Assembly: GCA_002238905.1 (NCBI GenBank)
Contig: MPNG01000001.1
Location: 12,599-76,598, forward strand
DNA length: 64,000 nt
Direction of reading: 5' to 3'
DNA from: Alphaproteobacteria bacterium bin98
GTDB taxonomy: Bacteria > Pseudomonadota > Alphaproteobacteria > Bin98
A program made the translations under genes and the position numbers. Below, in pieces: positions 3,353 through 46,638 of this stretch (positions within the stretch are counted from its first letter, which is position 1; each line of letters opens with the position of its first letter). Under the pieces are notes generated by a model that worked only from the letters and a program-made list of their open reading frames with translations, was not told where the DNA came from and did no database searches.

Positions 3353-3355
3353 CAA

Positions 3356-13440: not shown

Positions 13441-14406
13441 CTATATCAAAATCAAAAAAGACAGCTGCTCTCTAAAGGCTCTCAATGCTTGACCATACGA
13501 GGCATTATTCGAACAAAAACCTTGCAAAGATGATAATAATTGAGAACATAAGATTATTCCCCATCTTTGATTCCATTCTCTGACCTCAATGCTAGCGCGA
13601 GATATTGCTACTTTTTTGAATTCAGAAAAAATATAAAAGAACGATTCTAGATCAAGTTTGGAAGTGTCGATATGTCTGAGGAAATTTTGCAGATTAAGCG
13701 GCTCAAGAGAAACGTCGATGTACAGTGTCTTTTCAGAAGTAAGTGACTTATTTTTCCAGAATTCCATCGCATCATCAGACATTACTCTTTTGGTCTCTAG
13801 ATCAAGAGGATATATGACGCTTCCTTCAGCATTAAAAGTAAGGGAGTCGAGAATAAAAAATCGCCTGGCACATATCTTTGTAGCAGTAAGATCAAGTATC
13901 TGCTGAGAAGTAAGTGCATGGTGTTTTGTGATCAATAATTTTTCGATAGAATCCGTTACTTTTTTTATCAAATTATATATTTGACTAAATGACAAACAGG
14001 AATAATCCAGATCTCTGGAAAGGAAGTAGGCATTTATCAAAGATTTTTTTTGTGCCTTTAATAAGAGGTCAGTTGGCTCTGACTCATCACCGGAGGCTCT
14101 TTGTAAAGCGCTATAACCATCTTCAGCATCGGCGAAAATGGCATTCTCTACTTTCCTCATGATCCTTTCCACAGCTGTGCTTATGCTCATTCTCCTGAAG
14201 CTTTCTATCACATATTGACCTCTATCGGAGGCACTTTGTGAATCGATATCCGCATCCTCATCATCAGGCAAAATAGTATTTATGGTCATGATCAAGAACC
14301 TTAACCTCCAATCACTATCATGATCGGAGGCACTGTTCGAAGCGCTATGCGCATCTAAAAAAATGAATAATAATATTAGAAATATCACAAAACTCCTATT
14401 TATCAT
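13441..14406 (-). CDS. leader + LLSS-FC family secreted protein (subfamily B)
   Basis: The track ORF runs to 14433. Leader MINRSFVIFLILLFIFLDAHSAS starts at ATG 14406. Motifs KHHALTSQQILDLTATKI, LDLESFFYIFSEFKK, LLSSLQGFCSNNASYG. Confidence 0.85.
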   Translation of the reverse strand: MINRSFVIFLILLFIFLDAHSASNSASDHDSDWRLRFLIMTINTILPDDEDADIDSQSASDRGQYVIESFRRMSISTAVERIMRKVENAIFADAEDGYSALQRASGDESEPTDLLLKAQKKSLINAYFLSRDLDYSCLSFSQIYNLIKKVTDSIEKLLITKHHALTSQQILDLTATKICARRFFILDSLTFNAEGSVIYPLDLETKRVMSDDAMEFWKNKSLTSEKTLYIDVSLEPLNLQNFLRHIDTSKLDLESFFYIFSEFKKVAISRASIEVREWNQRWGIILCSQLLSSLQGFCSNNASYGQALRAFREQLSFLILI

Positions 14407-14689
14407 CTTATATGATTTTTTTTTAATAAACAAGCGTCGTATGGACTCTCATCACATAAGCTCAAACAAGCGGATAGAAGACAATAGTAAGCGCTTACAT
14501 ATTTTTGAGCCCTGCTCACTACTAGTACGACGTTGTGGATCAGGCCAATATTTTGCATTCAAAAAAGCAAAAGCATGCATGAAAAACATATGTACCTGCC
14601 AGTACACTCCACACGTTCTTTATTGCCTTTTTTTACAACACAATTCTTGATACAATGCTATTATTACACTATTTACTAAAGGGTATACT

Positions 14690-17104: not shown

Positions 17105-17413
17105 ATTGTAAATGATATTATAGAAAATTACTACTTTTTCGCACGCAAGAGAGTTTTTTTTTCAAATCAAAATAATTGGTAGCAAAAGCCTTCAGATCTA
17201 TAGGAGAGTTGACGTGTTTTGTATCATTAAAAGCAACGGATTCTATGATAAAAAAGTTGGAACGCATCTTTGTATAAGTAAGACCAAGTATCTGCGCTTA
17301 GTATGATGAGAGTCAATCAGAAGAGCTATCCAAATTTTCTGTGGCTTACAAGATAAGCAAAAAATGCTATAGTCACACAGAGTGATAAGCAAATTGACAT
17401 CAATATTACATTG

Positions 17414-17900
17414 ATGTAACTATTTTTCACTTGTTTACATGCTGATGGCGCTTCTGCTCTAATGGCCGGTGAACAACTTAGTGAAACGGCACGTTGGCAA
17501 CAAACTCAGAAAAGATTGAAACCGTATCGTAATGGCGTTCTGGCGACACTCAGACGCTATCCATATATTTTACCACCCTAGAGTTAGTAGAATTTGATTT
17601 TAAAGACGACTATCAAAATGTATCCCTGGCAACCGCCTATATCTCAGGAATAAAAGCGATTTTTGTAATAAAGATGCCTCCGCAGTAAGCGATGTACAAG
17701 CTATACTGGCTTCACTGTCATCTTTGTTGGCTAACAGGTATCCCAACTTAAAAGATATTTAAGAGAATCCTCAAGATCCAAATTGTCATCTTGATCTCCC
17801 CTCACTGAAGCTTTAAAATGAGGCAACTAGCCCATACCTTCGCCTTTCATTGCCATTTGACCCCCCCTTATCAAAAACCCCTTGTGTGATAATACATGAA
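17414..17900 (+). pseudogene. decayed subfamily E gene (paralog of 6859..7407)
   Basis: Aligns by eye to 6859..7407 (tatttttcacttgtttaca, gttggcaaca.a.tcag, ccaaatt.t.atcttgat). ATG 17414 is followed directly by TAA, and no ORF of 60 aa or more exists here. Confidence 0.7.
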
Positions 17901-18277: not shown

Positions 18278-18841
18278 TTATTGATTGACAACAACTAATG
18301 TAGCGTAGAACTTATCATATCTTGTATTAAACTTATCTTGGAGTCCATTACAGAGAGCTTCTAGACTTAAGAAGAGTTGTCTCAACGTCTCTTGGTATCT
18401 CTGTACTTCTCGATGATCTAAAGAACAGGGACTTAATCTTTTAGAAAATGTAGACAATTCTTGCCTATTCTCTTTGAGTACTGGAGGATTTTTTTTCAAC
18501 AAGGTATGCATCTTTGCTTCCGCCACAACACTCAGGACATTACATCCATAATCAATGAGATCAGACAATGAGAGGGGATGCTCCGTTTGTATCAAGAAAG
18601 TGTCAATCGCAGTTAAGATCTTGTGTTTGTACGGAAAAATGGCTTCTTGCGCTACCTTCCAATGTTGTGATTTTGCAACAATCCCACCTTTTTTGCTATG
18701 TTCTAGAAAATGAGATTCCCATATTTCGACAGCTGCCTTCACCAGCTGTGCACCCTCTTCTTCCATGCCAGGCACTGATTTTAAGCTTGAGGTAGTTCCG
18801 TAAGCACATGAAAAAATCAAAAATAATAATATCAAATTCAT
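18278..18841 (-). CDS. leader + family C-motif secreted protein (subfamily H)
   Basis: Leader MNLILLFLIFSCAYGTTSS (ATG 18841 after TTG 18844). Motifs HWKVAQEAIFPYKHKILTAIDTF, LRQLFLSLEALCNGLQ. Confidence 0.8.
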   Translation of the reverse strand: MNLILLFLIFSCAYGTTSSLKSVPGMEEEGAQLVKAAVEIWESHFLEHSKKGGIVAKSQHWKVAQEAIFPYKHKILTAIDTFLIQTEHPLSLSDLIDYGCNVLSVVAEAKMHTLLKKNPPVLKENRQELSTFSKRLSPCSLDHREVQRYQETLRQLFLSLEALCNGLQDKFNTRYDKFYATLVVVNQ

Positions 18842-19191
18842 CAATATCTCCTTATCTACAATTTTACCTTATATCATCTCACAATTTAACTATGATTCGC
18901 ACTGTTATTGGGCAGAATTCTCATAGCCTGAGATCAGAATAAGTGGCCAAATTGCGTTACTCTCAGAAAAGTATATGAAACAGAGAAAAAAGCGGAGGAA
19001 GAAAAAAATAAGCCAATCCGAATGATGCATCCGTAATCAGGTTAGGCGTAGTGAATATAGCGTTCAAATCTTTAGACTTTATCGTCAAAATTTTTCACCA
19101 TCCTCTGAGCTCAGATAGAAATGGTCAGTTTTACTCACTGAAACCTACTGTCATCATCCCATTTATCACAATATCATCATATGGCTTATAA

Positions 19192-19704
19192 TCATTGCTT
19201 ATAAGCCAAAAAAATATCATGAACAGATGGTGATATGTGAGCATACCAGTCTTTATATACTCTGTAAGCGAGATCCTGGTTGTTTTCACAGAAAGCTTTG
19301 CAAGCGTATAAGAGATTATTGTGTAGGATCAAACGATGGAGGCTTGACAATTGGACCCAAACTTCAATGCGGTGGGAAAAAACCTGACGATTGCGCAGAT
19401 CTCCACGTATTGCTGCATTGAGAGCTTTAGCGAGGATAGGTACATCAAGTGTAAATTGTGGACATTGAGGATCCTCTTCACTTTCATTAATTATTGCTAT
19501 TGCACTTGATCGGCCATGGATGATATCAGCAAGATCAAGAAACAGATTTTCTGTTCTGATTAAATCGCAAACGGTATATGAAGGTTTGTTCAATATGGGC
19601 TTGAGCAGCTCTTGTTTCAGGATTTCTTCAGTATATCCAGCGGAGGGGCTTAGCAAAGCTCCATAAAATGGTGAACTCACAAATAACAGTAAAATTAATA
19701 TCAT
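19192..19704 (-). CDS. leader + LLSS-FC family secreted protein (subfamily E)
   Basis: The track ORF runs to 19725. Leader MILILLLFVSSPFYGALLS starts at ATG 19704. Motifs FTLDVPILAKALNAAI, LLYACKAFCENNQDLAYRVYKDWY. Confidence 0.8.
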   Translation of the reverse strand: MILILLLFVSSPFYGALLSPSAGYTEEILKQELLKPILNKPSYTVCDLIRTENLFLDLADIIHGRSSAIAIINESEEDPQCPQFTLDVPILAKALNAAIRGDLRNRQVFSHRIEVWVQLSSLHRLILHNNLLYACKAFCENNQDLAYRVYKDWYAHISPSVHDIFLAYKQ

Positions 19705-19803
19705 AAATCTATCCTTATTTACCATTGTCGCAAAAATGGTGAACTCACAAATAACAGTAAAATTAATATCATAAATCTATCCTTATTTACCATTGTCGCA
19801 AAA
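19666..19803. repeat. perfect 69-bp tandem duplication spanning the start codon, leader and 5' flank of CDS 19192..19704
   Basis: The unit aaatggtgaactcacaaataacagtaaaattaatatcataaatctatccttatttaccattgtcgcaa occurs twice back to back. Confidence 0.85.
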
Positions 19804-20015
19804 GTAAAAAATAGTTGCAAGAATCAAGTGGTTGCAGCATTGCGATTCTATTGACCTCGCAGCACACTTTGAATTGACTCTCAAACTAAGGATATACTGA
19901 AACACTTCTTAGAAATGCAAAGATATTAATCAGTGGTTGAGCGCATTTATGTATTTTGCTAAAAGTTAAGATATGCCAGAAACTGCATAAATAAATTTAT
20001 CTCACCTTCATTCAT

Positions 20016-20420
20016 ATGTTTGTTATTGTTAAGTGTGTGAATAGTGATAGAATACCATTAACGGAGGATTTCAATGTGCAAAATTACTATCTTTTTTTAC
20101 CCTTTGTAATAAAAAATTTATACTGCGCAAGTACTGAGCACTGTCTAAATATTGATGAAAGAGAGCAAGAAAGAATAGCCCATATTCAAAGTCCACCAAA
20201 GATAGATATAACGCAATCACTGGTGCTGAAATTAGAAAACGGCACTCATTCAACTTATATGGCCATAGAAGTCATTGATAGCGCAGAAGAGCAAGTAGAA
20301 CAAAGCTCTCTCAAGAAATTTTTGAAGTGCAAGATTGATAAAAAACATGTGATTTTGACTACCTTTCTGGTGAATATGGCACTTACTTTAGGTATTGTGA
20401 TCTCAGTATGGTATTCATAG
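20016..20420 (+). CDS. hypothetical tail-anchored membrane protein (non-family)
   Basis: 134-aa ORF with no family motifs. C-terminal hydrophobic helix ILTTFLVNMALTLGIVISVWYS. The start is uncertain. Confidence 0.4.
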   Translation: MFVIVKCVNSDRIPLTEDFNVQNYYLFLPFVIKNLYCASTEHCLNIDEREQERIAHIQSPPKIDITQSLVLKLENGTHSTYMAIEVIDSAEEQVEQSSLKKFLKCKIDKKHVILTTFLVNMALTLGIVISVWYS

Positions 20421-20427
20421 GGCCTTG

Positions 20428-20802
20428 ATGATTTACATAATAATAGCTTGTATGATGATTCATGCATCTGGATATGCGGCACACGACCCTTCAGAGCGAG
20501 ACCCTCTTCTGACACTCCCACTTTCAAACAATGGAGCTTATAGCGCAAAAGAAAATATAGATGTGGTAGTTAATTTGAGGGGCCCTGCAGTGTTGTGTGT
20601 GAACGAACAATCCCCACAGATCCTGTTCGTGCGTATAAAACGCCCAAATAATCCTCCATCAAATAAAAAACTGATATATGCATGTCTTATTACACAACAA
20701 CTGCTGTTTGTCCTCTTTAGTGGGTTGTGGATATTCCAATTGAGCAAATCTTGGAATCACTCCTCTTCTGTGAATACGACTAATACGACCACACTATGTT
20801 AA
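20428..20802 (+). CDS. hypothetical small membrane protein (non-family)
   Basis: TTG 20425 / ATG 20428 lies 5-8 nt after the upstream stop. N-terminal hydrophobic segment MIYIIIACMMIHASGYAA. Second helix LLFVLFSGLWIF. Confidence 0.5.
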   Translation: MIYIIIACMMIHASGYAAHDPSERDPLLTLPLSNNGAYSAKENIDVVVNLRGPAVLCVNEQSPQILFVRIKRPNNPPSNKKLIYACLITQQLLFVLFSGLWIFQLSKSWNHSSSVNTTNTTTLC

Positions 20803-21077
20803 AGTTTTTGCGTTTATTTATATTGCTAATTTCAAGTATATTTGCTTCTGTTTCAGATCTCGAAAACCAAATTAACACTCATCAACTACCGCAAATTGTG
20901 GTGAAAGATCAGCATTATCTAATCAGTATGAATGAAACTGAAGTGCACAAAAAGCCTTCATGCGGCACGATTTTATATAGGGGTGTAGCTTATCTTTCGT
21001 GTCTCTCTGCCATCTCTTTTTTAGCAGCGCAAATTCTATATGCAGCTTCTGCATTTTATACCCCCTACGCCAAATGA
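20796..21077 (+). CDS. hypothetical small membrane protein (non-family)
   Basis: The ATG overlaps the upstream stop (ATGTTAA). Signal-like MLKFLRLFILLISSIFASVS. C-terminal helix YLSCLSAISFLAAQILYAASAF. Confidence 0.5.
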   Translation: MLKFLRLFILLISSIFASVSDLENQINTHQLPQIVVKDQHYLISMNETEVHKKPSCGTILYRGVAYLSCLSAISFLAAQILYAASAFYTPYAK

Positions 21078-21244
21078 TGCCTGATATGATTACCGCATTC
21101 AGCAATGTTGTGCTCTCAAATACTAATGAATAAGCCAAACCTTGCTAGGTTTGAATCTGATAATAAGTGCTGAATAACTTAATATGGTTTTTGCAAAAGG
21201 AATAAACACTTGTAGGTGTTTATTATCGTCAAAATTTTGCAGCA

Positions 21245-21754
21245 TCAAGTGGTCGCAGCATTGCGATCACTTTGACTAGATTTGGATACAATATAGTCTC
21301 GTATCATAGCGATTGCATTTGCAAACCGACTATATGACTGAGAAGTTTTAGATTCACATCCATCGCACAAATACTTTACAGATGCCAACAAGTCGCAGAG
21401 TGCTCTTTGAAAACTACTCTTCACCCATTGATCACGGTCAGGAATATTTATAAAACGTTCATACAATGAAGATAATTTTAGCTGATTCACCCAAGTGTTT
21501 TGGATGCTGTCTGTCGCACCCTCTTTACTGCTTGCATGCTTGAAAATTGCGAATATTGGGGCTGTCTCGGCCATTAAGTCAGAGTACTCTAAGTCAGTAT
21601 ACTGAGCGCCTAGGCTAGTTGCCTTCACCTCGATCATGACAAACGTATCCAAAATATCTTGCATATATGGTTGCATCTGACAATTAGATTCATTGAAATC
21701 TGAGTCTGAGGCAGAATAAGCGTGAAAACAAACAAAAAACAACAGCAACAACAT
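21245..21754 (-). CDS. leader + family C-motif secreted protein
   Basis: Leader MLLLLFFVCFHAYSASDSD. C motif LCDLLASVKYLCDGCESKTSQSY. Confidence 0.75.
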   Translation of the reverse strand: MLLLLFFVCFHAYSASDSDFNESNCQMQPYMQDILDTFVMIEVKATSLGAQYTDLEYSDLMAETAPIFAIFKHASSKEGATDSIQNTWVNQLKLSSLYERFINIPDRDQWVKSSFQRALCDLLASVKYLCDGCESKTSQSYSRFANAIAMIRDYIVSKSSQSDRNAATT

Positions 21755-21989
21755 GCACCATTATTATATCACACTACATTCTCCATACCAAACAACTCTT
21801 CATATCGTTAACATATCTAGCAATATTGTGTACTAACGTACTCACAAAGGTGGATCATTGTCTTTCTATATTTAGTTATAAAGACAATACGCAAACTATA
21901 AAAAATTATCTCCAAGGAATAGTATAAATCATCACTTTCGGCATCGATCCAATCAAGCATATAAGTGCCAAACATTTTTGTAGCGTACA

Positions 21990-22366
21990 ATGACCCGCTG
22001 TAGCTGCAATAGAAGGTGCCAAAGGATGCTAATAATGGCAGGCATGCAGCATTGTATTATTTCTCTAATGGCCACTCTTCGTGTTTCGAATCCAGAAATT
22101 CGAATCCAGAAAAAAGATAAAAGTAGCACTCTAGATCAATTTGGGAAGATTCTATTTGTGGGAAAGTGCGTAGATTCAGTTGGGGAAAAATCCATATTTT
22201 CGAAATCTGTGCAATTAATTGCCCTGATCGTAGGGTAACGTGAAACTATCTTTGTAGCAGTAAGGGCCAATATCTGCTCAGAAGTAAGTTCATGATGTTT
22301 GAGCAATTTTTTTGCAAGAGCATCCGTGAATTGTGCTGTCAAATCACGCCATCGTTGAAATTCCAA
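21990..22366 (-). pseudogene. decayed subfamily B gene (no leader, broken frame)
   Basis: Track ORF 22136..22366 reads ..LLKHHELTSEQILALTATKIVSRYP... Downstream of it the frame is broken, but ..YNAACLPLLASFGTF is still readable. Confidence 0.6.
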
Positions 22367-22495
22367 ATCCCAATAATTAGTTCACTCGTCTATTTGTATC
22401 ACTTTTTTTAAATCAAAAAATATAATGATATAGAGTCATCAACGCTTTAGCCTAGTCTGGACGTTTGCACTGCAGGGCACATCTAATACGCCTCG

Positions 22496-23092
22496 CTAGA
22501 AATCTCTCTGCTGCCTCGCTAGAGATTCCTTTTCTTCATCGAGCAAGATCGCTCTGATTTCATCAAGATCCTTCTGAAGCGCACTCACTCTGGAGCCCTC
22601 AAAAACTTCACTATTCGCACAGAAATCTTCCAAAGCTGATAATACGTTACGGTATGCATTCTCGTATGCATACCGTATTTTGATTTTATATAGCGGCTCT
22701 CTCTCTTTATTCAAAGATAACAAGGATTGAGTCTCATTTAATTCATAAAAATAAAAAAATAAGATTTCTAAATCGCCACGCACCCATTTTTTATAGCGTA
22801 GAACATGTCGTTGATACCCAATTATCTGGGTAGAAGGCACGTGATAATGTTTCTCTAAGAGATCTTCAATATTATCGCTTATTTTGCCAACAAAGGTAGA
22901 TAATGCTTCATACTGCATACTTTGATAATTATGATTCCTGAGGATGGTGAGCAGATTTGTTTTGTGCGTCTCCAACAATTCTTGATCGTTTTCCCAACTT
23001 TTCAGAGCAAAAGGGGTTTTTGGGCAGTCCTCAACGCTATATCCTGCTCCACAAGCGTGCAAAAAGGTTAAAAATAATAATACTAATAACAT
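22496..23092 (-). CDS. leader + LLSS-FC family secreted protein (subfamily A)
   Basis: Leader MLLVLLFLTFLHACGAGYS (ATG 23092 after TTG 23095). Motifs KHYHVPSTQII, DLEILFFYFYELNE, YRNVLSALEDFCANSEVF. Confidence 0.85.
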   Translation of the reverse strand: MLLVLLFLTFLHACGAGYSVEDCPKTPFALKSWENDQELLETHKTNLLTILRNHNYQSMQYEALSTFVGKISDNIEDLLEKHYHVPSTQIIGYQRHVLRYKKWVRGDLEILFFYFYELNETQSLLSLNKEREPLYKIKIRYAYENAYRNVLSALEDFCANSEVFEGSRVSALQKDLDEIRAILLDEEKESLARQQRDF

Positions 23093-23209
23093 CAATATAT
23101 CCTCATACTTTTGTCATTATAACCTCTACTGTGTATTGAAGCCATAATTTAATGCGTATCGAGAGTAAGAAGAGAGTTCACAACTTTCAGAGCCTCCCCC
23201 CCCTCACCA

Positions 23210-23776
23210 TTAACCACGGTGGACTATCAAGTCATTATGATGCTGAGATTTCTGCCAGCCCAAAAATTCTTCCCTAGCGTTCACTTCGTGTTGTTGATAA
23301 AAATGGTAAAAAGATAAGAGGAGGTGTTGATACCCAGCAATTAATGCTGATTCGTATCGACAAAGATTTCCAACAGACTTGAAATAACCCGCATTCATTA
23401 CACAAAATGCCCAATAGAAGTTTTTTATATCAAGAGGACAGTACGAATTTTTTGTGATGTTTTTGATTGTCAGATCAATCTCATCCAGATTTTTTGATTC
23501 GAAATAATCAACTTTTTCGGCGCACTGAAAAAGACTGCCTCTTATTGATTGTGCACAAGTCAATAATGTTTGAAGATTGCCACTTCGAACAGAACCTAGA
23601 ATACAAAAATTATCAAAAATACTTCTATACGGGTCAAACACTCTTTGAGCTACTATCCACAGTGAAGGATCGGATTGATGGATGCTGGCAGTAACTGGTT
23701 GTACTGCTTCATAGCGATCATCCATAGCTCCATAAACTTGCAAACAGCTGAAACAAAATATAAATATCAAAAACAT
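23210..23776 (-). CDS. leader + family secreted protein (subfamily J)
   Basis: The track ORF runs to 23848. Leader MFLIFIFCFSCLQVYGAMDD starts at ATG 23776, preceded by AGGAGG. Motifs CPLDIKNFYWAFCVMN, YQHLLLSFYHFYQQHEVNAREEFLGWQ. Confidence 0.85.
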   Translation of the reverse strand: MFLIFIFCFSCLQVYGAMDDRYEAVQPVTASIHQSDPSLWIVAQRVFDPYRSIFDNFCILGSVRSGNLQTLLTCAQSIRGSLFQCAEKVDYFESKNLDEIDLTIKNITKNSYCPLDIKNFYWAFCVMNAGYFKSVGNLCRYESALIAGYQHLLLSFYHFYQQHEVNAREEFLGWQKSQHHNDLIVHRG

Positions 23777-23945
23777 CTCTATTCCTCCTATAAATAGCAA
23801 AGCCATTTTACACCATTTTGCGCCACCAGCAATATTTCTGAGCTGCAAAAGATATTTTTTTATGAATATACTCCTATTTTAGACTTAAATATGCCTTTTC
23901 GTTTAGTGAAATCAGGAAATTAAAAAACTCCAGGAGGCTCAGCGT

Positions 23946-24548
23946 CTATGAAAGCGATTGCGGCCAACAATCAAAATATTCGTTCAGAGCATCTTGCGCA
24001 TTTTTCTTACAGCAAGCATAAAAAGATCGTAGCAAATGGTATGCACCATCTCTGCTTGCCTGGCCTGTCTGGAGAACCTTAAAAGAGTGATAATAAGTTT
24101 CTAAACTAAGGTAAAACATATTTTTTTTAGCATATTTTATTATACATACTCTTCTTGCCAATATCTCTTCAGCAGTATAGTCAGGGTAACGATTTCTATA
24201 AGCTTTCTCCAGTATATCGGTTATTGGTTGCATGAATTCCCTTAGTTCATCAATACTCATATCTGGTAGTATAAGCTTATCATTACAATCCACAAAGATC
24301 TTAAAGTGTTGGAGGAACTCTGCTCTGTCGCTTTCAAATAAAATTTGCTCTTTTTCCCACTGTTCATCACTTATCGCTCCTATAGCACTTGGCGCTGTCA
24401 TACAAACCATACTCAAACACAAACACATCTCTTCTATCTTCTCATCAAGGTTGTTTGCGGCAGCCATCAAGCGTACGCAGGTGAAAAATAATAAAATGCA
24501 TATCACAAATAATACTCCGGATGGTGTTATTATATCATATTGAATCAA
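23946..24548 (-). CDS. leader + family secreted protein (subfamily F)
   Basis: Hydrophobic leader ..GVLFVICILLFFTCVRLMAAAN. Motifs NRYPDYTAEEIL, FYLSLETYYHSFKVLQ, YHLLRSFYACCKKNAQDALNEYFDCW. Confidence 0.8.
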   Translation of the reverse strand: MIQYDIITPSGVLFVICILLFFTCVRLMAAANNLDEKIEEMCLCLSMVCMTAPSAIGAISDEQWEKEQILFESDRAEFLQHFKIFVDCNDKLILPDMSIDELREFMQPITDILEKAYRNRYPDYTAEEILARRVCIIKYAKKNMFYLSLETYYHSFKVLQTGQASRDGAYHLLRSFYACCKKNAQDALNEYFDCWPQSLS

Positions 24549-24559
24549 AAATCAGTGGT

Positions 24560-25175
24560 GGGTTACCATTCCCACAAAGAGCGATATTCTTCATCAGCTT
24601 ACTATTTATTTCCTTCATATCAATATTCCAAAGATGAGAAAAGTTTCCGGCACACATTTATATATTTTGTTGCGTTCAAGGCTTGGGGTTTGCAATATAT
24701 AGTAGTCTGCATAAAACTTATAAAAAGCCCAAAAAAATATTGGAGCAGAAAGGAAAGAGTATGTGGTTTCTATGCGACAGTCTCCCGGCTCTTCTGAAGC
24801 ATATCAAGCTCAAGATCAGAGTATTGCGTTGTGTAGATTTCTGTAAGTATATTTCTTATTGTTTCTTCAAAATACCTGAATTTATCCAATCGAATCATTG
24901 CAAGATAATTTTTAGATTTTAGCGCATCTAAAATTTCTCTTTTCTTCGGTTGAATAACTGCTTGCTCTGCTTGCCACCGCTAATATGCTGGCGCAGTTAA
25001 TGCATATATCACAGCTGCTGCTTTACTGTTTATGTCTCTTTGATCTTCGATGAATGAGACTCCTTGTAAAAACAAGCCAACTCACCACCGCAATCATCAG
25101 GATATTTGCCTATATCAAATCAATTTAGCAGAACGCAATCAGCATGAAAACAAATTGCAAACAAATGCTATTATG
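24560..25175 (-). pseudogene. heavily decayed family gene
   Basis: Reading the minus strand gives family-like pieces: a degenerate leader ..IIAFVCNLFSC*, ..REILDALKSKNYLAMIRLDKFRYFEETIRNILTEIY.., and ..EYRSLWEW. Several stops break them up. The plus-strand track ORFs here look like noise. Confidence 0.4.
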
Positions 25176-25365
25176 CCAATCTCTATCTTAAATTAATATA
25201 CCATTATATACAGAAGGCTATTTGCACAAAAATATTTATTTCATTGAGAAGAAATTATTATTGACTCATACAAGATAGAGCGAATTGAACTCTTGCATAA
25301 AAGATAGCAAGATCATCACCAAGATGATGATCTTGGTGCCTGGCATACTGTTTCAATCTGCTTCA

Positions 25366-26136
25366 TTACCTTTGTTGTTTTTTTGCACCGACAAAGTGAC
25401 CGTTGTAATCTATGCTCTTGCCCAGTGAACCAAACTGTGCATTTTGCCATTCCAACCAATACTTTCTACAGTGCCATAGATCTCTTTGATGAAAATAGTA
25501 AAAAGATGATAAGAGTTTGGAATATATTGCCATGGACATTTCTTTCTTTGAGGTAGGCGTTTCAGTTTTTTGTGCATATAATTCAGGATATTTATCCGAT
25601 ATAACAAAAGCCCAATAAAAGTTTTCCATAGTAAGATAACAGTGTAGAGATTTGATAGTACCGAATCGATATTTCCACTCACTTTTACTTATTCTAGTAG
25701 TAATTCCCCCGCATTCTTTAAGCTTTGATTGCAGCGATTGTGTCTCACGATATGATTGATTAATATCATATTTTTCCCAAGGCATTCCAATACACCAACC
25801 ATCAAACTGACTTCTGTGCACATCAAAATCTGCTTGTGCGCAGTCCCAGGCCAGAACGCCATGTGGTGCACATATGAAAAAGAGCTGTTGCGCAAAAGCT
25901 GGGTGATAATATGCAAAAGCTGCTTGAGGCTCAGCATATGGAACAGTCTCCTTACGCAATTTTATGACCAGCTTGGTCTCGCCCTGCTTCATCTCTTTTG
26001 GCAGAACTATTCTATCCTGATTATACTCATCCTGAAAAAAGCGTTTTCTGGTGCTATCTTTTGCGCGTTCATTTGTAACGATATTGCTTTCAGCGCCTTG
26101 TGCGTGCAAACAAAGTAAAAATAATAGTAAGGTCAT
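25366..26136 (-). CDS. leader + family secreted protein (subfamily J)
   Basis: The track ORF runs to 26163. Leader MTLLLFLLCLHAQGAES starts at ATG 26136. Motifs CYLTMENFYWAFVISD, YSKLLSSFYYFHQRDLWHCRKYWLEWQ. Confidence 0.85.
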   Translation of the reverse strand: MTLLLFLLCLHAQGAESNIVTNERAKDSTRKRFFQDEYNQDRIVLPKEMKQGETKLVIKLRKETVPYAEPQAAFAYYHPAFAQQLFFICAPHGVLAWDCAQADFDVHRSQFDGWCIGMPWEKYDINQSYRETQSLQSKLKECGGITTRISKSEWKYRFGTIKSLHCYLTMENFYWAFVISDKYPELYAQKTETPTSKKEMSMAIYSKLLSSFYYFHQRDLWHCRKYWLEWQNAQFGSLGKSIDYNGHFVGAKKQQR

Positions 26137-26376
26137 CGATCCCTTGGTAAAAATAATATACAAAATTATACACTGTATTTTTTTAATATGATTTATTAAA
26201 AAGAAAAAATAGTAGTTTATTTTTTTTTGAGAAAAAAGCTGTCAATTCGATCAATCTTATTGGCATACATAACACTACATGTAATGTTGCTCAACAAAAA
26301 GAATATACCCACAAAGAATATACTCACGACACACAATACATAATACTATATACAATCGACAAAAAATATCAAAAGG

Positions 26377-26650
26377 CATGCCAAAAATTACTGTTAGCTT
26401 TAAAGGATTTGCGTGATGGAGATAAAGTTAAAGCTAAGTCACGGCATGATTATCTATGGAAAGAATTCGCTTGAATTTTTTGAAATAATAATATACTCTT
26501 CGATTTAATTTTATTTGCAAACATTGCACAATATTTTGATTTCTCGATGATTTTTCATACTTATAGCGTTGTCTTTGCATGCAATAAAAAAGTAGGGATT
26601 ATCCTCCTTTTTTACAATATAGTGCAGCACACTACGCTTCTTTTTCTTTT
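26377..26650. repeat. copy 1 of a ~270-bp repeated segment (see 30156..30425); its upper end carries a polybasic-CaaX coding remnant
   Basis: catgccaaaa.tta.tgttag...gattaaattttttgaaata.taataatata...cttcgatttaattttatt.tgcaaacatt aligns with 30156..30425. On the minus strand, 26650..26612 reads KRKRSVVCCTIL-stop. Confidence 0.75.
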
Positions 26651-26657
26651 TCATCAA

Positions 26658-36863: not shown

Positions 36864-38510
<1,647 letters not shown>

Positions 38511-38985: not shown

Positions 38986-39591
38986 TCACATCCACCTTAC
39001 AACCCTTTGTTGGAGTGTATTGACCAAACATTGCCACTTATAATATTCGTCCTCAGCGTCTAATTTCTTTTCCTCACAATAATATTTCAAAGATAATAAG
39101 AGGGTAGAGTACACGCTACCACTGTCCAGAGAGACAGATGCACCTTTTGCTTCTAAAAGTAATCTCTCGAATTCTGTACTTGTAGTACAAAAAGCACAAA
39201 GGTACGTTAGTGGGTTAAGATGAAAATACCGAGCTCTGCAATCCACCATTGCTTGACGTCTCCTCTCATCATTTTCTAGCAACTTCTCTTTGTTGCAGAA
39301 CTGTGCAAGCATATCTTCTACTGGTGTTACGCAATCTTTCATTAATCGCTGAAAATCATTAGTGTGTATTGTCCCGCACGGTAAAGTTAAAGTAGAAAAA
39401 AAATCTTTCAAACCTGTTCTGCACTCATCAAAAGATCGTTGATCCATTTTCCATTTAAAATATCGCAACCCCATATCTTCTGCTGATTGAGTCCTAAATA
39501 GCATATATCTATACAATTCAGACTCAGAGTCCTTCCCGCTCTCTGTTCCATGAGAGTATGAGCATATCAAAAATATTAATATCAGTTTCAT
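38986..39591 (-). CDS. leader + LLSS-FC family secreted protein (subfamily K-like)
   Basis: Leader MKLILIFLICSYSHGTESG. Motifs FHLNPLTYLCAFCTTS, YSTLLLSLKYYCEEKKLDAEDEYYKWQ. Confidence 0.85.
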   Translation of the reverse strand: MKLILIFLICSYSHGTESGKDSESELYRYMLFRTQSAEDMGLRYFKWKMDQRSFDECRTGLKDFFSTLTLPCGTIHTNDFQRLMKDCVTPVEDMLAQFCNKEKLLENDERRRQAMVDCRARYFHLNPLTYLCAFCTTSTEFERLLLEAKGASVSLDSGSVYSTLLLSLKYYCEEKKLDAEDEYYKWQCLVNTLQQRVVRWM

Positions 39592-39681
39592 ATGGCTATA
39601 ATTTGATTTAAATCATCCTTAATAATATTACACGCCATCTTTTGCAAATTTCAAAATCAAAGTGCAGAATCACGATATAAC

Positions 39682-39711
39682 AAAAAAGAGCACTTTAAAG
39701 CGCTCTTTTTT
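39682..39711 (-). terminator. intrinsic terminator 3' of CDS 39726..41030
   Basis: aaaaaagagcac-tttaaa-gcgctctttttt: a GC-containing stem flanked by A/T runs, 15 nt after the stop. Confidence 0.7.
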
Positions 39712-39725
39712 GCATTCACTTTCAA

Positions 39726-41030
39726 TCATTTAAAAGGAGTTTCTGGAATAGCTATGATACGAAAACCAGGCAGATCGACTGTTGATAAGTCTCCTGGCAA
39801 CTCAAGCATTGTGCATCCAGGACCCTCTAATGAGTATTGCGCATAGTGAGAAAAAGGCTTATCTTCTCTGGGATCAACTCGAAAGTGACAGCCAGCAACA
39901 TACACATGTAGCTTATCACTGACATTTTCAACTTTGTAAACAAACATTTCTGTCCCTTTATAAGCGAGTATTGTGCCTGCCCTTAAATCTACTTCGTCAC
40001 CTTTCTGGCAGATCTCGAAAAGCTCTTTCTGAGTGCGGCGTACTGCAGAGTTTATAATGGTAGAGGCGAAAGAGCTTGAGTCATGAGATTGTCCTGTTAT
40101 ATAGGCTCCCAAACCTCCCATTTGAAATCCTCCGCCCAATACTTGAGGGCAGAACCAGTAGTCAAACCCAGAAACCTCATATTTTTGATAAAAAGACCCT
40201 TCCGAAGTATTGAAACCTGTCAGAATGTCTAGAGGAGTAGGCTGTCCTCGCAATCGAGATATTTGTACTGTACCTGGAAAATATTCTTCAGCAGCTTTTA
40301 TCATTCCATCCAGAGTGTTATTTCCACGTGTCATCATAATGTGAAAAAGATAGGCATGAGCAAAAGGCATAAATCCTTCATGAGGATTTGGTTTCTGCAT
40401 TTCATCTTGTTTTTGTGCTTTGGCATACCAAGCAAATCCATCCTCTGTGCAAGAGTTATATTGCCAAATATGCATCCACTCTTTTGCATAGTCGTGTACG
40501 ATTCTAGTAGCTTTGCTTAGAAGATCGGGTGCAATATTGTGATTCACTGGCAAGACATTTGGGATTTGATCGTAAAGTTTTGAGTGTTGTTGCGCTTTAT
40601 AAAGCATAGATGCTTGCACATAAAGGAAGCTTTTTTGCGCAGAAGGACTCCAACAGTTAGGAGGGCACGATTCAAAGAAACCTTGGGATTCTTGTACATC
40701 TTCTGAAGAATCACCTACTTGAATCACACCGTATGTTGCTATTTGCGCTAGGAAGAGCCTTTCAGGGTGCTTAGCAGGCATTGCCGCAAAAAATTTTGTT
40801 TGAATAATCATAGATGCTATTTCTTTTGATTTTTCTTTATCTGCATAATCCCCCCAATCTTTTACAAGTTGATCGCGACTCATGATCCTATTTTTTGCAA
40901 AATTTGCAAAATCAGGGAGATTCAAAGGAGAATCTGCAGGTAACACACACAAAGGAATTGTTTTAACTGCTGACTGCGCCGTCGGAACTAACGCAAAAAG
41001 TAATAGGAAATAAGTTATATTCATACTCAA
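39726..41030 (-). CDS. hypothetical secreted protein (non-family)
   Basis: 434-aa ORF. The signal peptide MSMNITYFLLLFALVPTAQSA looks ordinary and differs from the family leader. No family motifs. Function not recognised. Confidence 0.8.
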   Translation of the reverse strand: MSMNITYFLLLFALVPTAQSAVKTIPLCVLPADSPLNLPDFANFAKNRIMSRDQLVKDWGDYADKEKSKEIASMIIQTKFFAAMPAKHPERLFLAQIATYGVIQVGDSSEDVQESQGFFESCPPNCWSPSAQKSFLYVQASMLYKAQQHSKLYDQIPNVLPVNHNIAPDLLSKATRIVHDYAKEWMHIWQYNSCTEDGFAWYAKAQKQDEMQKPNPHEGFMPFAHAYLFHIMMTRGNNTLDGMIKAAEEYFPGTVQISRLRGQPTPLDILTGFNTSEGSFYQKYEVSGFDYWFCPQVLGGGFQMGGLGAYITGQSHDSSSFASTIINSAVRRTQKELFEICQKGDEVDLRAGTILAYKGTEMFVYKVENVSDKLHVYVAGCHFRVDPREDKPFSHYAQYSLEGPGCTMLELPGDLSTVDLPGFRIIAIPETPFK

Positions 41031-41201
41031 AATTATAACAAAAAAACTGAAAAATCACCTCACATGCCTTAAAATGATAAAAAAGTAATCATTCTGACAA
41101 AAAATAGATCATGACTTTGACAAAAGTCACATTTTCTGTTGCAAAAAAAGGATTATTGATTTATAATGTCTACATAAAATAATAATAAAAAATAGAATAA
41201 A

Positions 41202-41339
41202 ATGCGAAAAGTCAGATTGTTAATATTGGTGCTACTGCTCATTGTGATTAAAAAGGGGATATTAGATGGAGAGAATACTGTAAAAGTGGAAGAAAACAAC
41301 ACAAATGTTGTGAAACGCATTGTCAGTTATTTTGAATAA
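41202..41339 (+). CDS. possible 45-aa membrane-anchored peptide upstream of alr
   Basis: My translation is MRKVRLLILVLLLIVIKKGILDGENTVKVEENNTNVVKRIVSYFE-stop. It falls below the ORF-track size cut-off and has no further support. Confidence 0.25.
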   Translation: MRKVRLLILVLLLIVIKKGILDGENTVKVEENNTNVVKRIVSYFE

Positions 41340-41351
41340 CGCAGTATAATT

Positions 41352-42488
41352 TTGTCCAAAGAGCATATTTTTTCACTAAAAGATGACACAATATACTCAA
41401 GGAGATGCATTGTGCTAGAAGCCAATAGCCATGTTTTAATATCCAAGCAAAGTTTAAGAAGCAATTATCAATTTTTTGCTGATTATGTCTCTTCGGCTAA
41501 TGTTGCAGTGGTGTTGAAAAATAATGGATTTGGATATGGCTATGCAGAAATAACACCCGCACTCTATGCACAAGGCTGTAGGCGGTTTTACGTTGCAGAT
41601 GTAGAAGAAGCGCTCCGTATGCGGTCTTTTATGCCACATCAAGATGTTATTATAGCCCCCCTCTTTCCTCTAATTTCTCAAAACTCTCTTCACACTATGC
41701 GCAAGGCCGACCTTACCCCCTCCTTGAACAGCGTTGAAGATATTCAAACATACCTACGCTATGGGTGTGGAAAATCTTGTGTGGTGCGCGTAAGTTTTGG
41801 TCTCAATGTGGGTGTGCCTTATCAAAAAATTGCAGAATTAAAAGGTGAATTAGGCAAAATCAAGCAACTCACCGTTTTGGGGCACCTTCCTTTTGCAGAT
41901 GACAAAAATTCTTCTCATAACACAAATGCTCTAAAGGATATGATCGCACTGCGTCAACATTTGCCAGATGCGCGTTTTAGTTTGGCTTCTACAGCGGCAA
42001 TATTCCTTGGAAGTGAGTTTTTTATGGATGAAGCGCGTATAGGTGTGGGTTTGTTTGGTGCTGTTCATTTTTCTAACAACAATGCTGCAAAAAATGCGCA
42101 AGACAAAATTTCCTTTGCTTTAAAATTAAAAGCTTACACACGACATTCTTATTCTGTAAAAAAAGGTCAGATCCTTGGGTACGAAAGCATCGCAAAAGAA
42201 GATATGCAGATGGTGGTTGTGAGCTGTGGGTACGCAAATGGCCTTCCGATACAAAAAAGTAAAGAGCCACTCTCACTTCCATATCAAGGCAAATCTCTAA
42301 GATTAGTTCCAGAAACTCTCTCAATGTATAACGCATCTTTTGCTACTAACGATATTATTGCTTCTGGAGAAGAAGTCACTCTTCTAAAATCCTTTGAAGA
42401 TAGCATGCAATTTCGTCGTATAGAAAAAATCAACCACTCCGAATTGCTTCTGCGCATAAGCCGCGCCCACCAACAATTTATTCCGTAA
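41352..42488 (+). CDS. alr: alanine racemase (divergent)
   Basis: PLP-lysine region VVLKNNGFGYG (cf. canonical AVVKANAYGHG). ..ILGYES.. and VVVSCGYANGLP (cf. IPIGYADGY). The track start is TTG 41352. An in-frame GTG at 41412 follows AAGGAG and is an alternative start. Confidence 0.7.
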   Translation: MSKEHIFSLKDDTIYSRRCIVLEANSHVLISKQSLRSNYQFFADYVSSANVAVVLKNNGFGYGYAEITPALYAQGCRRFYVADVEEALRMRSFMPHQDVIIAPLFPLISQNSLHTMRKADLTPSLNSVEDIQTYLRYGCGKSCVVRVSFGLNVGVPYQKIAELKGELGKIKQLTVLGHLPFADDKNSSHNTNALKDMIALRQHLPDARFSLASTAAIFLGSEFFMDEARIGVGLFGAVHFSNNNAAKNAQDKISFALKLKAYTRHSYSVKKGQILGYESIAKEDMQMVVVSCGYANGLPIQKSKEPLSLPYQGKSLRLVPETLSMYNASFATNDIIASGEEVTLLKSFEDSMQFRRIEKINHSELLLRISRAHQQFIP

Positions 42489-42677
42489 ACACTATGTTTG
42501 TGTGAAGGACAGCTTCTTTGTCAATATGAGCATTTTTAATTCAACCGTGATTAATATCATGACTTTAAAAATAATGTAACGCTATCATGTCGTAATATTA
42601 TGATTTTCAATTTTCTTACATGATCATGGAGCGAAAAAAGTTTTTGAATCAGAAAATATATTAATCATATGGGTGAG

Positions 42678-43313
42678 TTAAACAAGCATAAAGATCAATT
42701 CGCTCAGCACAACATCACGAGCCTCGTATTCATACATGTGTGTGAGACGCCAAATATTATATTTTCGTTCAGCGACTTCCTTATTATCCGCACAGTAAGC
42801 TTGAAAAGCTGATAAGAGGAGCCAATACTGCTGCGTATATATTGGGTCTAGCGAAGAGAGATCTTTTTTATATCTTGCCTCTAAGAGTAGTGAGTGACCC
42901 CTCTCTCTCAATACTAAAAAAGCATAACAAAAGATCTTTGCATCAAGCTCAAAGTACACATCTAGGAGATTTTTCTCATAATTCACATCACCTGCTCTGA
43001 AGACATCCCTTTTTCAGAAGGCATCAAGTACATTTTCTATTTGCTCTGAGAAAGCCATTAATTCTTTAAGATTCCTTATATCAAAAAAATTTTGAGGGTT
43101 TAATATATCTTGACAGGTTTTCCTGCAGGTGAAACATTCTTGATTTTTTGCCACCTAATAGTGCGCATAGCTTGCTCCTGGATTATAATCCGTTCACTAA
43201 TTTTCTTGAGTCTGAGAAGATCAGCAGAATTCTCTAACGATATTGCGTCATCTGCTTCATGCGCCAGTGAATAGATTAAAAATAGTAAGATTAATTTGAT
43301 AAATGCATTTCAT
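42678..43313 (-). pseudogene. decayed subfamily K gene (paralog of 43379..44029)
   Basis: Only the C-terminal 102-aa ORF survives (..YWLLLSAFQAYCADNKEVAERKYNIWRL). Upstream the homologous sequence is frame-broken. The degenerate leader MKCIYQINLTIFNLFTGA-stop starts at ATG 43313. Confidence 0.75.
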
Positions 43314-43378
43314 AGAGAAACCGTATCACATCTTCATCATACCCTCAATCAATTTAAGAGTGGATGGGTTGAAAGGGC

Positions 43379-44029
43379 TTAGATTAGCTCCATGTTCTGC
43401 TGCATCACAAAATCACGAACCTTGTGTTCCTGTAGGTGTGTGAGACGCCAAATATTATATTTTCGTTCAGCGACTTCCTTATTATCATCAGAGTAAGCTT
43501 GAAAAGCTGATAAGAGGAGATGATACTGCTCCGCATATATTGGGTCTAGCGAGCAATCTTGCCTCAACATTATATAGCTTGCCTCTAATAATACTGCGCC
43601 ACACTTCTTTCTCAATACTAGAAAAGCATCATAGAAGGTCTTTGCATCAAGCTCAAAGAGCACATCTAAGAACTTTTGTGAAGAACCCACCTCCCCTGTT
43701 CTGAATATATTATTGCTTTTGCAGAAGGTGTCAAGCTTATTTTCTATGCGCTCTGAGAAAGCCATTAATGTTTCAAGATTGCTTATATCAAGAAAATTGT
43801 AAGGATTTAATATATCTTGACAGGCTTGCCTGCAAGTGAAACATTTTTGATTTTCTTTCCAGCGAACACAGCGCATATCTTGCCTCTCGATAGGCAAACA
43901 GCACTTGATTTCCCTTATTCTTTGAAAATCAGCATAATTCTCCAAATCGATTTCGGCACCTGCTCCATGCGCCAGTGAATAGATTAAAAATAATAAGATT
44001 AATGTCATGCTCATAAATGTACCTTTCAT
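43379..44029 (-). CDS. leader + LLSS-FC family secreted protein (subfamily K)
   Basis: Leader MKGTFMSMTLILLFLIYSLAHGAGAE. Motifs FELDAKTFYDAFLVLR, YHLLLSAFQAYSDDNKEVAERKYNIWRL. Confidence 0.85.
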   Translation of the reverse strand: MKGTFMSMTLILLFLIYSLAHGAGAEIDLENYADFQRIREIKCCLPIERQDMRCVRWKENQKCFTCRQACQDILNPYNFLDISNLETLMAFSERIENKLDTFCKSNNIFRTGEVGSSQKFLDVLFELDAKTFYDAFLVLRKKCGAVLLEASYIMLRQDCSLDPIYAEQYHLLLSAFQAYSDDNKEVAERKYNIWRLTHLQEHKVRDFVMQQNMELI

Positions 44030-44505
44030 AGAAAAATCATATCACATGTTCTTCATATCCTCACTTTGTCAATCAATACATTTAACAAAAGTATTATTTT
44101 TCTCATCACTCACATGATCTGTTGACAAAATGAAGTGACCAATTTGGAATTTGGATAGACAACTTCTAGCGGTTGGTGAGCCCAATCACAGTATTTTTTC
44201 TTATATTTCTCTTTATTTTTGTTTGAGAGATTTCATCAATGCCAACGAAGAATATAATGCTTTGTTAGCTCTTGTAATAGCATATAGAGATAGACCTCTA
44301 TTGCAATTTTGTACATTATTAAAAAATCAAAAATTTGAGAAGACTGTTTACACTTTTCCTCTAGAGAGAAAATCAGCTATTTCAACACACCTCCATGCCT
44401 CTTGAACGCAGTCTATGTTCGCAATCAAAAATTTATATAGTAAGGTACAGGTTTTGTGCTGACTATTTAGCGTATTCTCCCGCTTCAAGATTTTAGCCTA
44501 TTCTG

Positions 44506-45155
44506 CTAGGCATTATTAATCCACGTACTCTTCTTCCTTGAGCAAATCCTTAGTAACATTCCTTCGTGGAGGTGTATAAAACGACAAATATTAAACTTTC
44601 GTTCAGATTCATCTTGAATTTCTAAAGAGTAATTTCGAAGATCTGATAAGAGACTATGATACTCCTGAATGTATCTTAAGCCTTGCAGAGGAGGGCCGCT
44701 CTCGCATTGATATTCTCTCTCTAAGCATCGTAAATGCACATTTCCTCTCAAGAGTGAAAAAGCACAGAAGAAGGTTAATGCATTAAGTTCAAATCTCCTC
44801 TTTAGGGACTCTGACATATCAAAATACACAACATCCCAATCGCCTATTAGATCAATTTTGTGTCAGAATTCTGCAAGCATCATATTAAGAAAAACTGCAG
44901 GATCGAGATTCTTTTCAAAATATTCTCGGACAGAATCAAAACGTTGTTGATCTGAGGTCCAGTTAAAAGCGCGCATACCTCGCTCTTTAACTGTTAAACG
45001 AAGCAATGAATAAAACCTTTGTGCGTCAGCAACATCCTCAAGAGGATGGCTCTCTCTGAAAGACGGTTTGACATAAGTTAATGATGCTCCATGAGCTTTT
45101 GAATAGATAAAAATTAAAAAAACAATAACATAAATTTTTTTCTCAACATGAGCAT
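44506..45155 (-). pseudogene. subfamily K gene 'B' with two lesions (leader frameshift + in-frame TGA)
   Basis: The leader region reads ..MLLFF-stop. By my count the run is A7 at 45116-45122, versus A8 in the duplicate at 46429-46436. The body frame is open but has gaa ttc tga cac at ~44870. The C-terminal ORF 44506..44829 keeps FELNALTFFCAFSLLR..YHSLLSDLRNYSLEIQDESERKFNICRF. Confidence 0.7.
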
Positions 45156-45321
45156 TTTCAATGAAACCGTAATTAATATTATCACTTGAAAAAAATAATT
45201 TATAACGCTGACATGTCGAATATTATTATTTTTAATCTGTTTACATGCTCATGGCGCTAAAAAAGTTTTTGAACCAGATAGACTATATTAATCATCTTGA
45301 TGAATTAAGGGTCTTGGAAAC

Positions 45322-46098
45322 TCAGTGCGGCCCAGCTCTCCTCCGCATCACAGCATCACGAACATTAGGTCCCTCGAGGTATCTGAGACGCCAAATATTA
45401 TATTTTCGTTCAGCTTTTTCATGATTCTCCACACAGTAAGCTTCCATAGCTGATAAGAGGTCATGATACTGCTGGATGTATATTGGCGGAGACAAATATT
45501 GCTGAAATTCTGGCTGATCGTACAGACAGTAATTTTGAAAAGATAATAAGAGGTCGCGACACTCCGGCGTGTACGCTGAGTTTGACGGAGACAAATATTG
45601 CTGAGATAATTTTTTATATCTTTGCGCTGATAATACTGACGTAACATGGCCTCTCAACATTGCAAAAGCACAGAAGAAGCTGAATGCATTAAGCTCAAAG
45701 AGCTCATCTGTGACAATGTTCACAACAGACTTCATATCAGCATAAGCGATTAAATTATGGTGCTGGTTTTTCTTCAGAAGCTCTTCTAATTCCACTGAAA
45801 ATGCCATTAATTCTTCAAGATCGACCATCTCAATCCACTTCTGAGAATCGAGTATTTTTTTACAAGCTTCCCCGCAATTCCCAAAATGTTCTTGATTTTT
45901 TATCCTGTTGAGCTCCCGCACACCTTGCCTTTCTACTGACAGACGGTTGAGTGCAGTTATTCTTTGCGCATCAGCAAACTCCTCCAGAATGGTGGTGGGC
46001 TCTGCTCCATGCGCCAGTGAATAGATTAAAAATAATAAGATTAATGTCATGAATAAACCTCTAATACAAAGTTTATATCCTATTCTCAGCTTTATCAA
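45322..46098 (-). CDS. leader + LLSS-FC family secreted protein (subfamily K, duplicate 1)
   Basis: ..MTLILLFLIYSLAHGAEP (possible start at internal ATG 46050). Motifs FELNAFSFFCAFAMLR, YHDLLSAMEAYCVENHEKAERKYNIWRL. Confidence 0.85.
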   Translation of the reverse strand: MIKLRIGYKLCIRGLFMTLILLFLIYSLAHGAEPTTILEEFADAQRITALNRLSVERQGVRELNRIKNQEHFGNCGEACKKILDSQKWIEMVDLEELMAFSVELEELLKKNQHHNLIAYADMKSVVNIVTDELFELNAFSFFCAFAMLRGHVTSVLSAQRYKKLSQQYLSPSNSAYTPECRDLLLSFQNYCLYDQPEFQQYLSPPIYIQQYHDLLSAMEAYCVENHEKAERKYNIWRLRYLEGPNVRDAVMRRRAGPH

Positions 46099-46139
46099 TG
46101 AAGAAATTTAAAAAAATGATTGTTCCCCTCATGTTCACA

Positions 46140-46499: not shown

Positions 46500-46638
46500 T
46501 TGAAAAAAAATAATTTATAATGCTGACATGTCGTTAATATTATTATTTTTAATCTGTTTACATGCGCATGGAGCTAAAACAGTTTTTGAACCAGATAGAT
46601 TATATTAATCATCTTGATGAATTAAGGATCTTGGAAAC

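Follow-up and report, generated by a model that had tools for sequence, protein, structure and literature searches.

The minus strand at 26650..26612 reads aaa aga aaa aga agc gta gtg tgc tgc act ata ttg taa, and its translation, K R K R S V V C C T I L stop (KRKRSVVCCTIL-stop), agreed with that given in the preliminary description. The window, that is, the whole 64-kb stretch of DNA that was analyzed, was bacterial, with genes for DnaE, alanine racemase, MFS transporters and a Na+/H+ antiporter and a GC content of about 37%. The MAG containing it is labelled 'Alphaproteobacteria bacterium', and one of the runs containing it, SRR8092709, is a metagenome of the sponge Aplysina aerophoba (bioRxiv 10.1101/2024.01.09.574914). 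Many genes of the window share the leader M.LILLFL.CLH.(Y/H)GA, and two of them frame the locus:

26658..27701, minus strand: complete leader-bearing family gene for a 347-aa protein ending ...PPKSKRLKF-TGA (MCY4413479.1 / OXC30_00635)
26630..26657, minus strand: A-rich junction without homology to copy B of the duplicated segment described below; TGA TGA KRKRSVV in the +1 frame (three-frame translation)
26612..26629, minus strand: putative fossil CC-T-I-L-stop codons, the sole part of the tail homologous to a real gene end and the first 18 of 272 alignment columns
30393..30965, minus strand: leader-bearing orphan gene for a 190-aa protein ending ...TEDPVNPFRD-CCVIL (MCY4413476.1 / OXC30_00620)

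The TGA of the 347-aa ORF occupied 26660..26658, and the tail started 7 nt later in the +1 frame, in which TGA TGA at 26656..26651 directly preceded KRKR. Frame reading confirmed the earlier statement that the remnant, lying in this frame behind two TGA codons, is untranslated. The tail frame held only 12 codons between stops and no usable start. Frame 0 past the stop of the 347-aa ORF read LMKKKKKRSVLHYIV... (LMKKKKKRS), and the third frame read ...KIKILIDEKEKEA-stop (IDEKEKEA-stop), with a TAG one codon ahead of the Cys codons. C-a-a-X formed the last four residues of a translated protein in the 190-aa gene, but not in the remnant. The three-frame translation showed an A-rich junction that yields Lys or Arg in two of its three frames, which means that a polybasic reading adds no independent evidence.

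The two flanking genes

Paralogues of the 347-aa gene were present at 2606..3355, 28976..30109 and 13441..14433. An HMM of the C-terminal module of the family was built from 12 window members and searched against all six-frame segments of the window; the 347-aa protein scored 68.9 bits, and its module and tail were full-length in comparison with the paralogues. Pfam contained no family for this protein at E <= 0.1 and gave only sub-threshold matches to DUF5645 for the 190-aa protein (E 0.05 and 0.04), while NCBIfam gave nothing. In Pfam, neither flanking protein had a Ras-superfamily GTPase domain upstream of the tail. Within the 347-aa gene, at 27051..27438 on the minus strand, a unit of about 63 aa (...TAEQVL...LLHP.LA..D..SRDL.M.E..QG.CT.E.VL) occurs about three times with a DNA identity of 78-89% (families D1 and D5).

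The 190-aa CCVIL gene has an alternative start at 31019, which would give 208 aa. The proposal that its product is a paralogue of the 347-aa family protein was not upheld, because nothing beyond the shared leader related the two detectably, and no paralogue of the CCVIL protein was found within the window. In word-index searches, neither the CCVIL protein nor the 347-aa protein nor an alignment of 32 family members retrieved anything other than the queries, the family profile being too diffuse. Exhaustive phmmer with the CCVIL protein returned the protein itself and one weak non-self match to a repeat protein. In this match, residues ~50-111 (30396..30965, minus strand) aligned with 10 stretches of a 1660-aa eukaryotic selectin-like protein (E 1.6e-12), which consists of a C-type lectin domain, EGF and 18 Sushi repeats; the 63.7 bits were summed over 10 near-identical Sushi repeats. 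A Sushi domain in the CCVIL protein was rejected, since Pfam Sushi did not match even at E <= 10 and the score was a sum over repeats; the match might at most be a faint hint of a degenerate eukaryote-like module. The AlphaFold model of the CCVIL protein alone was unusable (pLDDT 38.8). Matches to a conserved 19-mer in genome and metagenome scans (35 and 41 loci) covered about 20-47 nt and were discarded as chance, the source organism evidently lying outside the scanned set.

The duplicated segment

A duplication was recovered as one pair by MAFFT, a repeat finder and sensitive blastn. The alignment of 26629..26364 to 30410..30143 had 272 columns and 7 gap openings, the identity being 80.1% and the E value 1.8e-60, and the segment was present in only two copies within the window. 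The ~270-bp repeat of the preliminary description therefore exists, but with these limits and not with 26377..26650 and 30156..30425. The features of the two copies were as follows:

26364..26629, no strand assigned: duplicated segment, copy A; identity to copy B 83% in the tail, 75% in the spacer and 78% in the fossil
30143..30410, no strand assigned: duplicated segment, copy B; last 18 nt of the CCVIL gene and all intergenic DNA as far as the start of gene 28976..30109
26187..26474, plus strand: putative fossil 3' end of a plus-strand family gene, copy A; 95 open codons and a stop, no start codon
30107..30247, plus strand: putative shorter fossil of the same plus-strand gene end, copy B; cut by the start of gene 28976..30109
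26584..26615 and, in copy B, ~30368..30393, minus strand: A-run / hairpin / T-run right after the stop, from the MFE and centroid structures of both copies

The alignment started exactly at the first Cys codon (TGC TGC ACT ATA TTG TAA in copy A, TGC TGC GTT ATA CTG TAA in copy B). The similarity did span the CC-x-IL-stop codons, with 15 of 18 nt identical between 26612..26629 and 30393..30410 (TGCTGCACTATATTGTAA and TGCTGCGTTATACTGTAA, respectively), and this placement within the alignment bore out the idea that these codons are homologous to the true C-terminus CCVIL of 30393..30965. The three differences spared the key residues, giving Thr or Val at a1 and a synonymous Leu. The 21 nt for KRKRSVV (26650..26630) had no counterpart in copy B, where identity fell to the random level and the corresponding position encoded the acidic, Pro-rich ...TEDPVNPFRD. 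Homology thus ran only from the first Cys codon, and the polybasic cluster and the CaaX box did not form one conserved unit; the view that the polybasic stretch was part of an inherited tail was not supported. As judged from the aligned DNA, only the CaaX half of the tail is homologous to a real C-terminus, and the polybasic-CaaX tail as a whole combines a fossil with a fortuitous reading of A-rich DNA.

The plus strand of the segment was analyzed with the C-terminal-module HMM. In copy A, 26187..26471 matched HMM positions 32-76 (E 5.1e-5, 20.4 bits) and ranked among genuine family genes; in copy B, 30107..30244 matched positions 42-75 with an E value of 0.022 among all six-frame segments. 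The results of tblastn were concordant: the copy A fossil matched family C-termini, and the copy B fossil matched residues 483-515 of the protein encoded by 36864..38510 at 39% identity. The plus-strand peptides, ...KYQKACQKLLLALKDLRDGDKVKAKSRHDYLWKEFA in copy A and ...KHLNSCQNLLLVFKYFRGGEKVKAKEKYDSVWKN in copy B, both fitted the family motif Y..LL.S...FC.....A..Y..W. The copy A fossil was absent from the list of ORFs of at least 40 aa, and neither fossil frame had a usable start codon. Comparison of the fossil frame between the copies showed 2 synonymous and 16 non-synonymous codon differences, and the control frames gave the same result. Because the plus strand matches the family module without a start or coding constraint, the segment appears to be a relic of a convergent gene junction, in which a decayed plus-strand 3' end is followed by a spacer of ~140 nt and five minus-strand codons with their stop. 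About 110 nt of the segment were a decayed coding fragment. Each end of the homology corresponded to one truncation, that of the copy B fossil at the start of 28976..30109 and that of the copy A tail at the 3' flank of the 347-aa gene. No significant remnants of the body of the CCVIL gene were detected by tblastn near copy A or elsewhere (E >= 1.3).

The pattern of divergence was examined for constraint. Identity was uniform along the segment, and 7-8 indels were scattered over it. In a neutral simulation at 20% divergence, CaaX plus stop was kept in 18.5% of cases and CC-aaX-stop in 10.8%; with exactly three substitutions, the values were 17% for CaaX plus stop and 7% for Cys-Cys-a-a-X-stop. 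Since neutral retention reaches 11-19%, preservation of CC-T-I-L needs no selection. The sparing of key residues within 18 nt was mildly suggestive of past constraint, but occurs by chance in 7-17%. The segment thus combined homology to part of an intact gene, with no intact ORF of its own, and neutral divergence free of coding or structural constraint, as is seen in gene relics.

We also considered that the ~270 bp might primarily be a non-coding element with a function of its own. It could act as a bidirectional terminator, as a 3' UTR or small RNA, or as a promoter of the gene downstream, and CCVIL would then be fortuitous and without a role in prenylation. Both copies carry the A-run / hairpin / T-run after the stop, copy B fills the entire intergenic region up to the start of the next gene, and one canonical CaaX ending is within the chance expectation given below. 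The shared hairpin had only 3-4 bp, with flanking A and T runs, z-scores of -0.8 and -0.2 and a score below the terminator scan criteria; it is a weak candidate for a bidirectional terminator between former convergent genes. Against the non-coding element, Rfam gave no match to the segment at E <= 1, the terminator scan of the segment found nothing that met its criteria, and promoter-like sites in the segment were at or below the shuffle expectation. The folding z-scores of the segment (-0.8 to +0.7) were no better than those of shuffles, the uniform identity and spread indels left no islands of conservation, and the decayed coding fragment also argues against it. We regard such an element as unlikely, and a relic of a convergent junction as the better account of the segment.

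Translatability of the tail and the CaaX motif

The tail of the 347-aa gene could be explained differently if this gene had recently carried, or still conditionally carried, a polybasic-CaaX terminus. The tail would then have been in frame until recent indels, or it would be added when the ribosome or the RNA polymerase slips in the A-runs. In favor of this, the stop and the tail are separated by only 7 nt, the DNA contains A-rich tracts, and KRKRSVVCCTIL resembles a textbook Rho/Rac-type tail. However, enumeration of every single indel and substitution in the 3'-terminal 120 nt of the CDS and onwards to 26630 gave no product ending in CCTIL; at least two events were needed, either two insertions or a stop loss plus a deletion. 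The frame-0 TGA precedes the A-runs, which are only A5 and lie after this stop, and the +1 frame has two TGAs right before KRKR. No slippery motif in the upstream ORF was combined with an open downstream frame, as programmed frameshifting or transcriptional slippage would need. The protein, moreover, already has its full-length C-terminal module and tail, and the polybasic codons lack a counterpart in copy B.

The junction was then compared among assemblies. It was base-identical, together with both copies of the segment, in the NCBI MAG GCA_026710745.1, in JGI 3300002151, 3300002150 and 3300027391 and in Logan SRR8092709, and JGI 3300002147, which covers copy B only, was also identical (six assemblies, separate datasets). 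Over 5-21 kb, the population was 99.97-100% identical across assemblies, which leaves neither heterogeneity at the consensus level nor any comparative signal. With no single indel or substitution leading to a CCTIL ending and with an identical junction in every covering assembly, the suggestion that the A-rich runs are a slippage-prone route to the tail was not supported, and a 347-aa protein bearing this tail is very improbable. Recoding of TGA as a rescue was rejected as well: 18 of the 47 long ORFs end in TGA, and table 11 yields an intact DnaE.

The frequency of such endings was determined in the window and its flanks. Cys at position -4 was found in 3 of 49 window ORFs of at least 150 aa, as compared with a background of 4.5%, and CCVIL was the only canonical ending among them, the other two being CPIN and CFSY. 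The 13 kb of flanks added one further Cys(-4) ending, CRDQ. Across the window and these flanks (~77 kb of genome), a single leader-bearing gene out of ~45 had a canonical CaaX. Canonical CaaX endings made up 0.44% of all six-frame segments of the window; at this background, one CaaX in ~45-60 genes is within chance, and a few are expected per genome. The data showed no enrichment, and the supposition that CaaX endings are commoner than chance failed in these ~77 kb. Nor was the motif conserved among relatives, as no homologues beyond the protein itself were found, or enriched in the repertoire of the ~77 kb. CaaX is not a trait of the family.

The combination of a polybasic stretch with a canonical CaaX ending was expected at ~0.2 per shuffled 64-kb window, 20% of the shuffles having at least one, and the real window contained two others in nonsense frames, at 58608 and 58731. 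These numbers speak for pure coincidence, with a tail that has no link to a gene end and whose likeness to CaaX arose by chance among the six reading frames. The motif alone is indeed not beyond chance, but the DNA homology is highly significant: the CC-T-I-L-stop codons lie inside the 272-column alignment to a segment that ends a real ORF. Coincidence is refuted for the CaaX half and is the best account of the polybasic half; as an explanation of the whole tail, it is the least credible of those weighed here.

The literal reading KRKRSVVCCTIL is like the polybasic-CaaX hypervariable tail of Rho/Ras small GTPases, of which the Rac1 tail, ...KKRKRKCLLL, is an example. Unlike these tails, it has no GTPase domain, and its polybasic stretch is a frame artefact that is not homologous to the functional copy. 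The CCVIL end of the 190-aa protein could serve as a CaaL box for geranylgeranylation and has a second Cys next to it. A CaaX box with X = Leu predicts GGTase-I as the modifying enzyme, a Cys adjacent to CaaX is often S-acylated, as in SifA and RhoB, and flexibility would be expected of a Pro-rich linker.

Prenylation of bacterial CaaX proteins by the host is well established (PMC2916131, PMC13081727, PMC13423502, PMC6546311), and includes the effectors AnkB (PMC2916131) and PelC/PelE (PMC13081727) of Legionella and GtgE (PMC13423502) and SifA (PMC6546311) of Salmonella. Like these effectors, the 190-aa protein ends in CVIL with a second Cys and a Pro-rich acidic linker, and the bacterium lives in an animal host, the sponge Aplysina aerophoba, as documented for one sample. 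Unlike them, it has an N-terminal Sec-type leader and no T3SS or T4SS signal, the motif has neither orthologues showing conservation nor enrichment in the family, and the remnant is untranslated. The Sec-type leader gives no indication of delivery to the host cytosol.

Host prenylation of the CCVIL protein would be plausible as such. The full proposal that the protein is lipidated by the Aplysina aerophoba host, with geranylgeranylation of the Cys four residues from the C-terminus and S-acylation of the adjacent Cys, and that the fossil marks a second CaaX paralogue once present, is doubtful. If it were true, C-terminal lipidation tails would have been gained, duplicated and lost by recombination in a huge leader-sharing family, and mimicry of host prenylation would reach beyond Legionella and Salmonella to an alphaproteobacterial sponge symbiont. 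Prenylation of CCVIL would then be the first case in a sponge symbiont of which we are aware; the titles and abstracts of the literature searched mentioned no CaaX case in such an organism.

Proposed history and the surrounding gene array

The most probable reading, to which we assign a probability of about 0.8, is that the 39-nt feature is an untranslated gene relic formed by duplication and deletion in a birth-and-death array and subsequent neutral decay. First, a convergent junction would have been duplicated in the array, with a family gene on the plus strand and, across a spacer of ~140 nt, a minus-strand gene whose last codons were Cys-Cys-x-Ile-Leu-stop. In copy B, the minus-strand gene would have survived as the 190-aa CCVIL gene, while the plus-strand gene was presumably truncated to ~45 codons. 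In copy A, a deletion or rearrangement would have erased everything of the CaaX-ending paralogue that preceded the Cys-Cys codons. The 18 nt left would thereby have come to abut the 3' flank of the unrelated 347-aa gene, with ~95 plus-strand codons remaining as a fossil. The K/R residues would be the A-rich junction as read in that frame, and the segment would have decayed neutrally since. We infer the order of events, duplication and then one truncation per copy, from two copies in one species, and the ancestral tail would have belonged to a translated gene. Alternatively, one of the two sites could have received a copy of the segment, the frame of the gene at copy B simply running into it.

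The relic reading was considered against the background of the array. The leader was common to about 35-40 ORFs, over half of the genes in the 64 kb, for example in 1196..6398, 18278..31019, 38986..47415 and 61687..63555. Most leader-bearing ORFs also shared the C-terminal module F.LD....AF ... Y..LL.S...FC.....A..Y..W. No Pfam or NCBIfam family corresponded to the leader family, and no homologues outside the organism were found in the searches run. A typical member was confidently predicted to be an all-alpha bundle of 9 helices (pLDDT 86.6, pTM 0.78), with only generic helical matches in the PDB. The DNA of the leader was too degenerate and AT-rich to serve as a pattern, the best candidate matching 7 times in the window as compared with ~33 leader-bearing genes.

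The array was rich in segmental duplications of 60-99% identity and in leader and C-terminal fragments without ORFs. C-terminal-module fragments outside long ORFs were located on the minus strand at 24623..24769, 14406..14558 and 28684..28797 (E 4e-4 to 0.01), and leader-like DNA outside long ORFs was located on the plus strand at 17404..17473, 42590..42630, 45215..45255, 46532..46572 and 55533..55573. By their similarity, these intergenic fragments appear to be further pseudogene relics of the leader family. The array shows a birth-and-death pattern, in which the relic is unremarkable. Like pseudogene fragments in host-associated birth-and-death arrays, the relic has DNA homology to part of an intact neighbor gene, lacks a start or an open frame, shows neutral substitution and has many fragments and duplications nearby. 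It differs from typical gene relics in that its CaaX side is unusually short (18 nt) and in that it stands back-to-back with an opposite-strand relic, preserving the former convergent junction.

The remnant alone matters little, although it shows how an attractive motif can arise from a fossil and an A-rich frame artefact. As a marker, it points to duplication, deletion and recombination at a rapid pace among the orphan secreted-protein genes of a sponge symbiont, and it leads to the intact neighboring CCVIL gene, which has a small chance of encoding a genuine host-lipidated protein. The giant family of orphan secreted proteins in this symbiont is arguably more interesting than the remnant.

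Further structural variation was observed elsewhere in the window. Two 300-nt direct repeats with 99% identity, at 54637..54936 and 57160..57459, flank a block of ~2.5 kb that contains an MFS gene fragment, a 264-aa family gene and a 148-aa ORF. The block is absent from the ENA assembly ERZ27241798 (locus L048), in which the 1204-aa gene directly adjoins the three MFS genes; its presence or absence is a structural polymorphism between strains or assemblies. The three tandem MFS transporter paralogues (51241..54856, plus strand) are 401 aa each and 46-50% identical, and a 3' MFS fragment that is 95% identical lies at 57119..57379. The 1204-aa gene (57609..61223, plus strand) encodes a leader-bearing orphan with about five tandem repeats of ~300 nt (100 aa; 61-81% identity) at 58624..59925. 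A short tandem repeat tract of the CAGAGC type lies at 37373..37669, within the gene for a 548-aa protein at 36864..38510.
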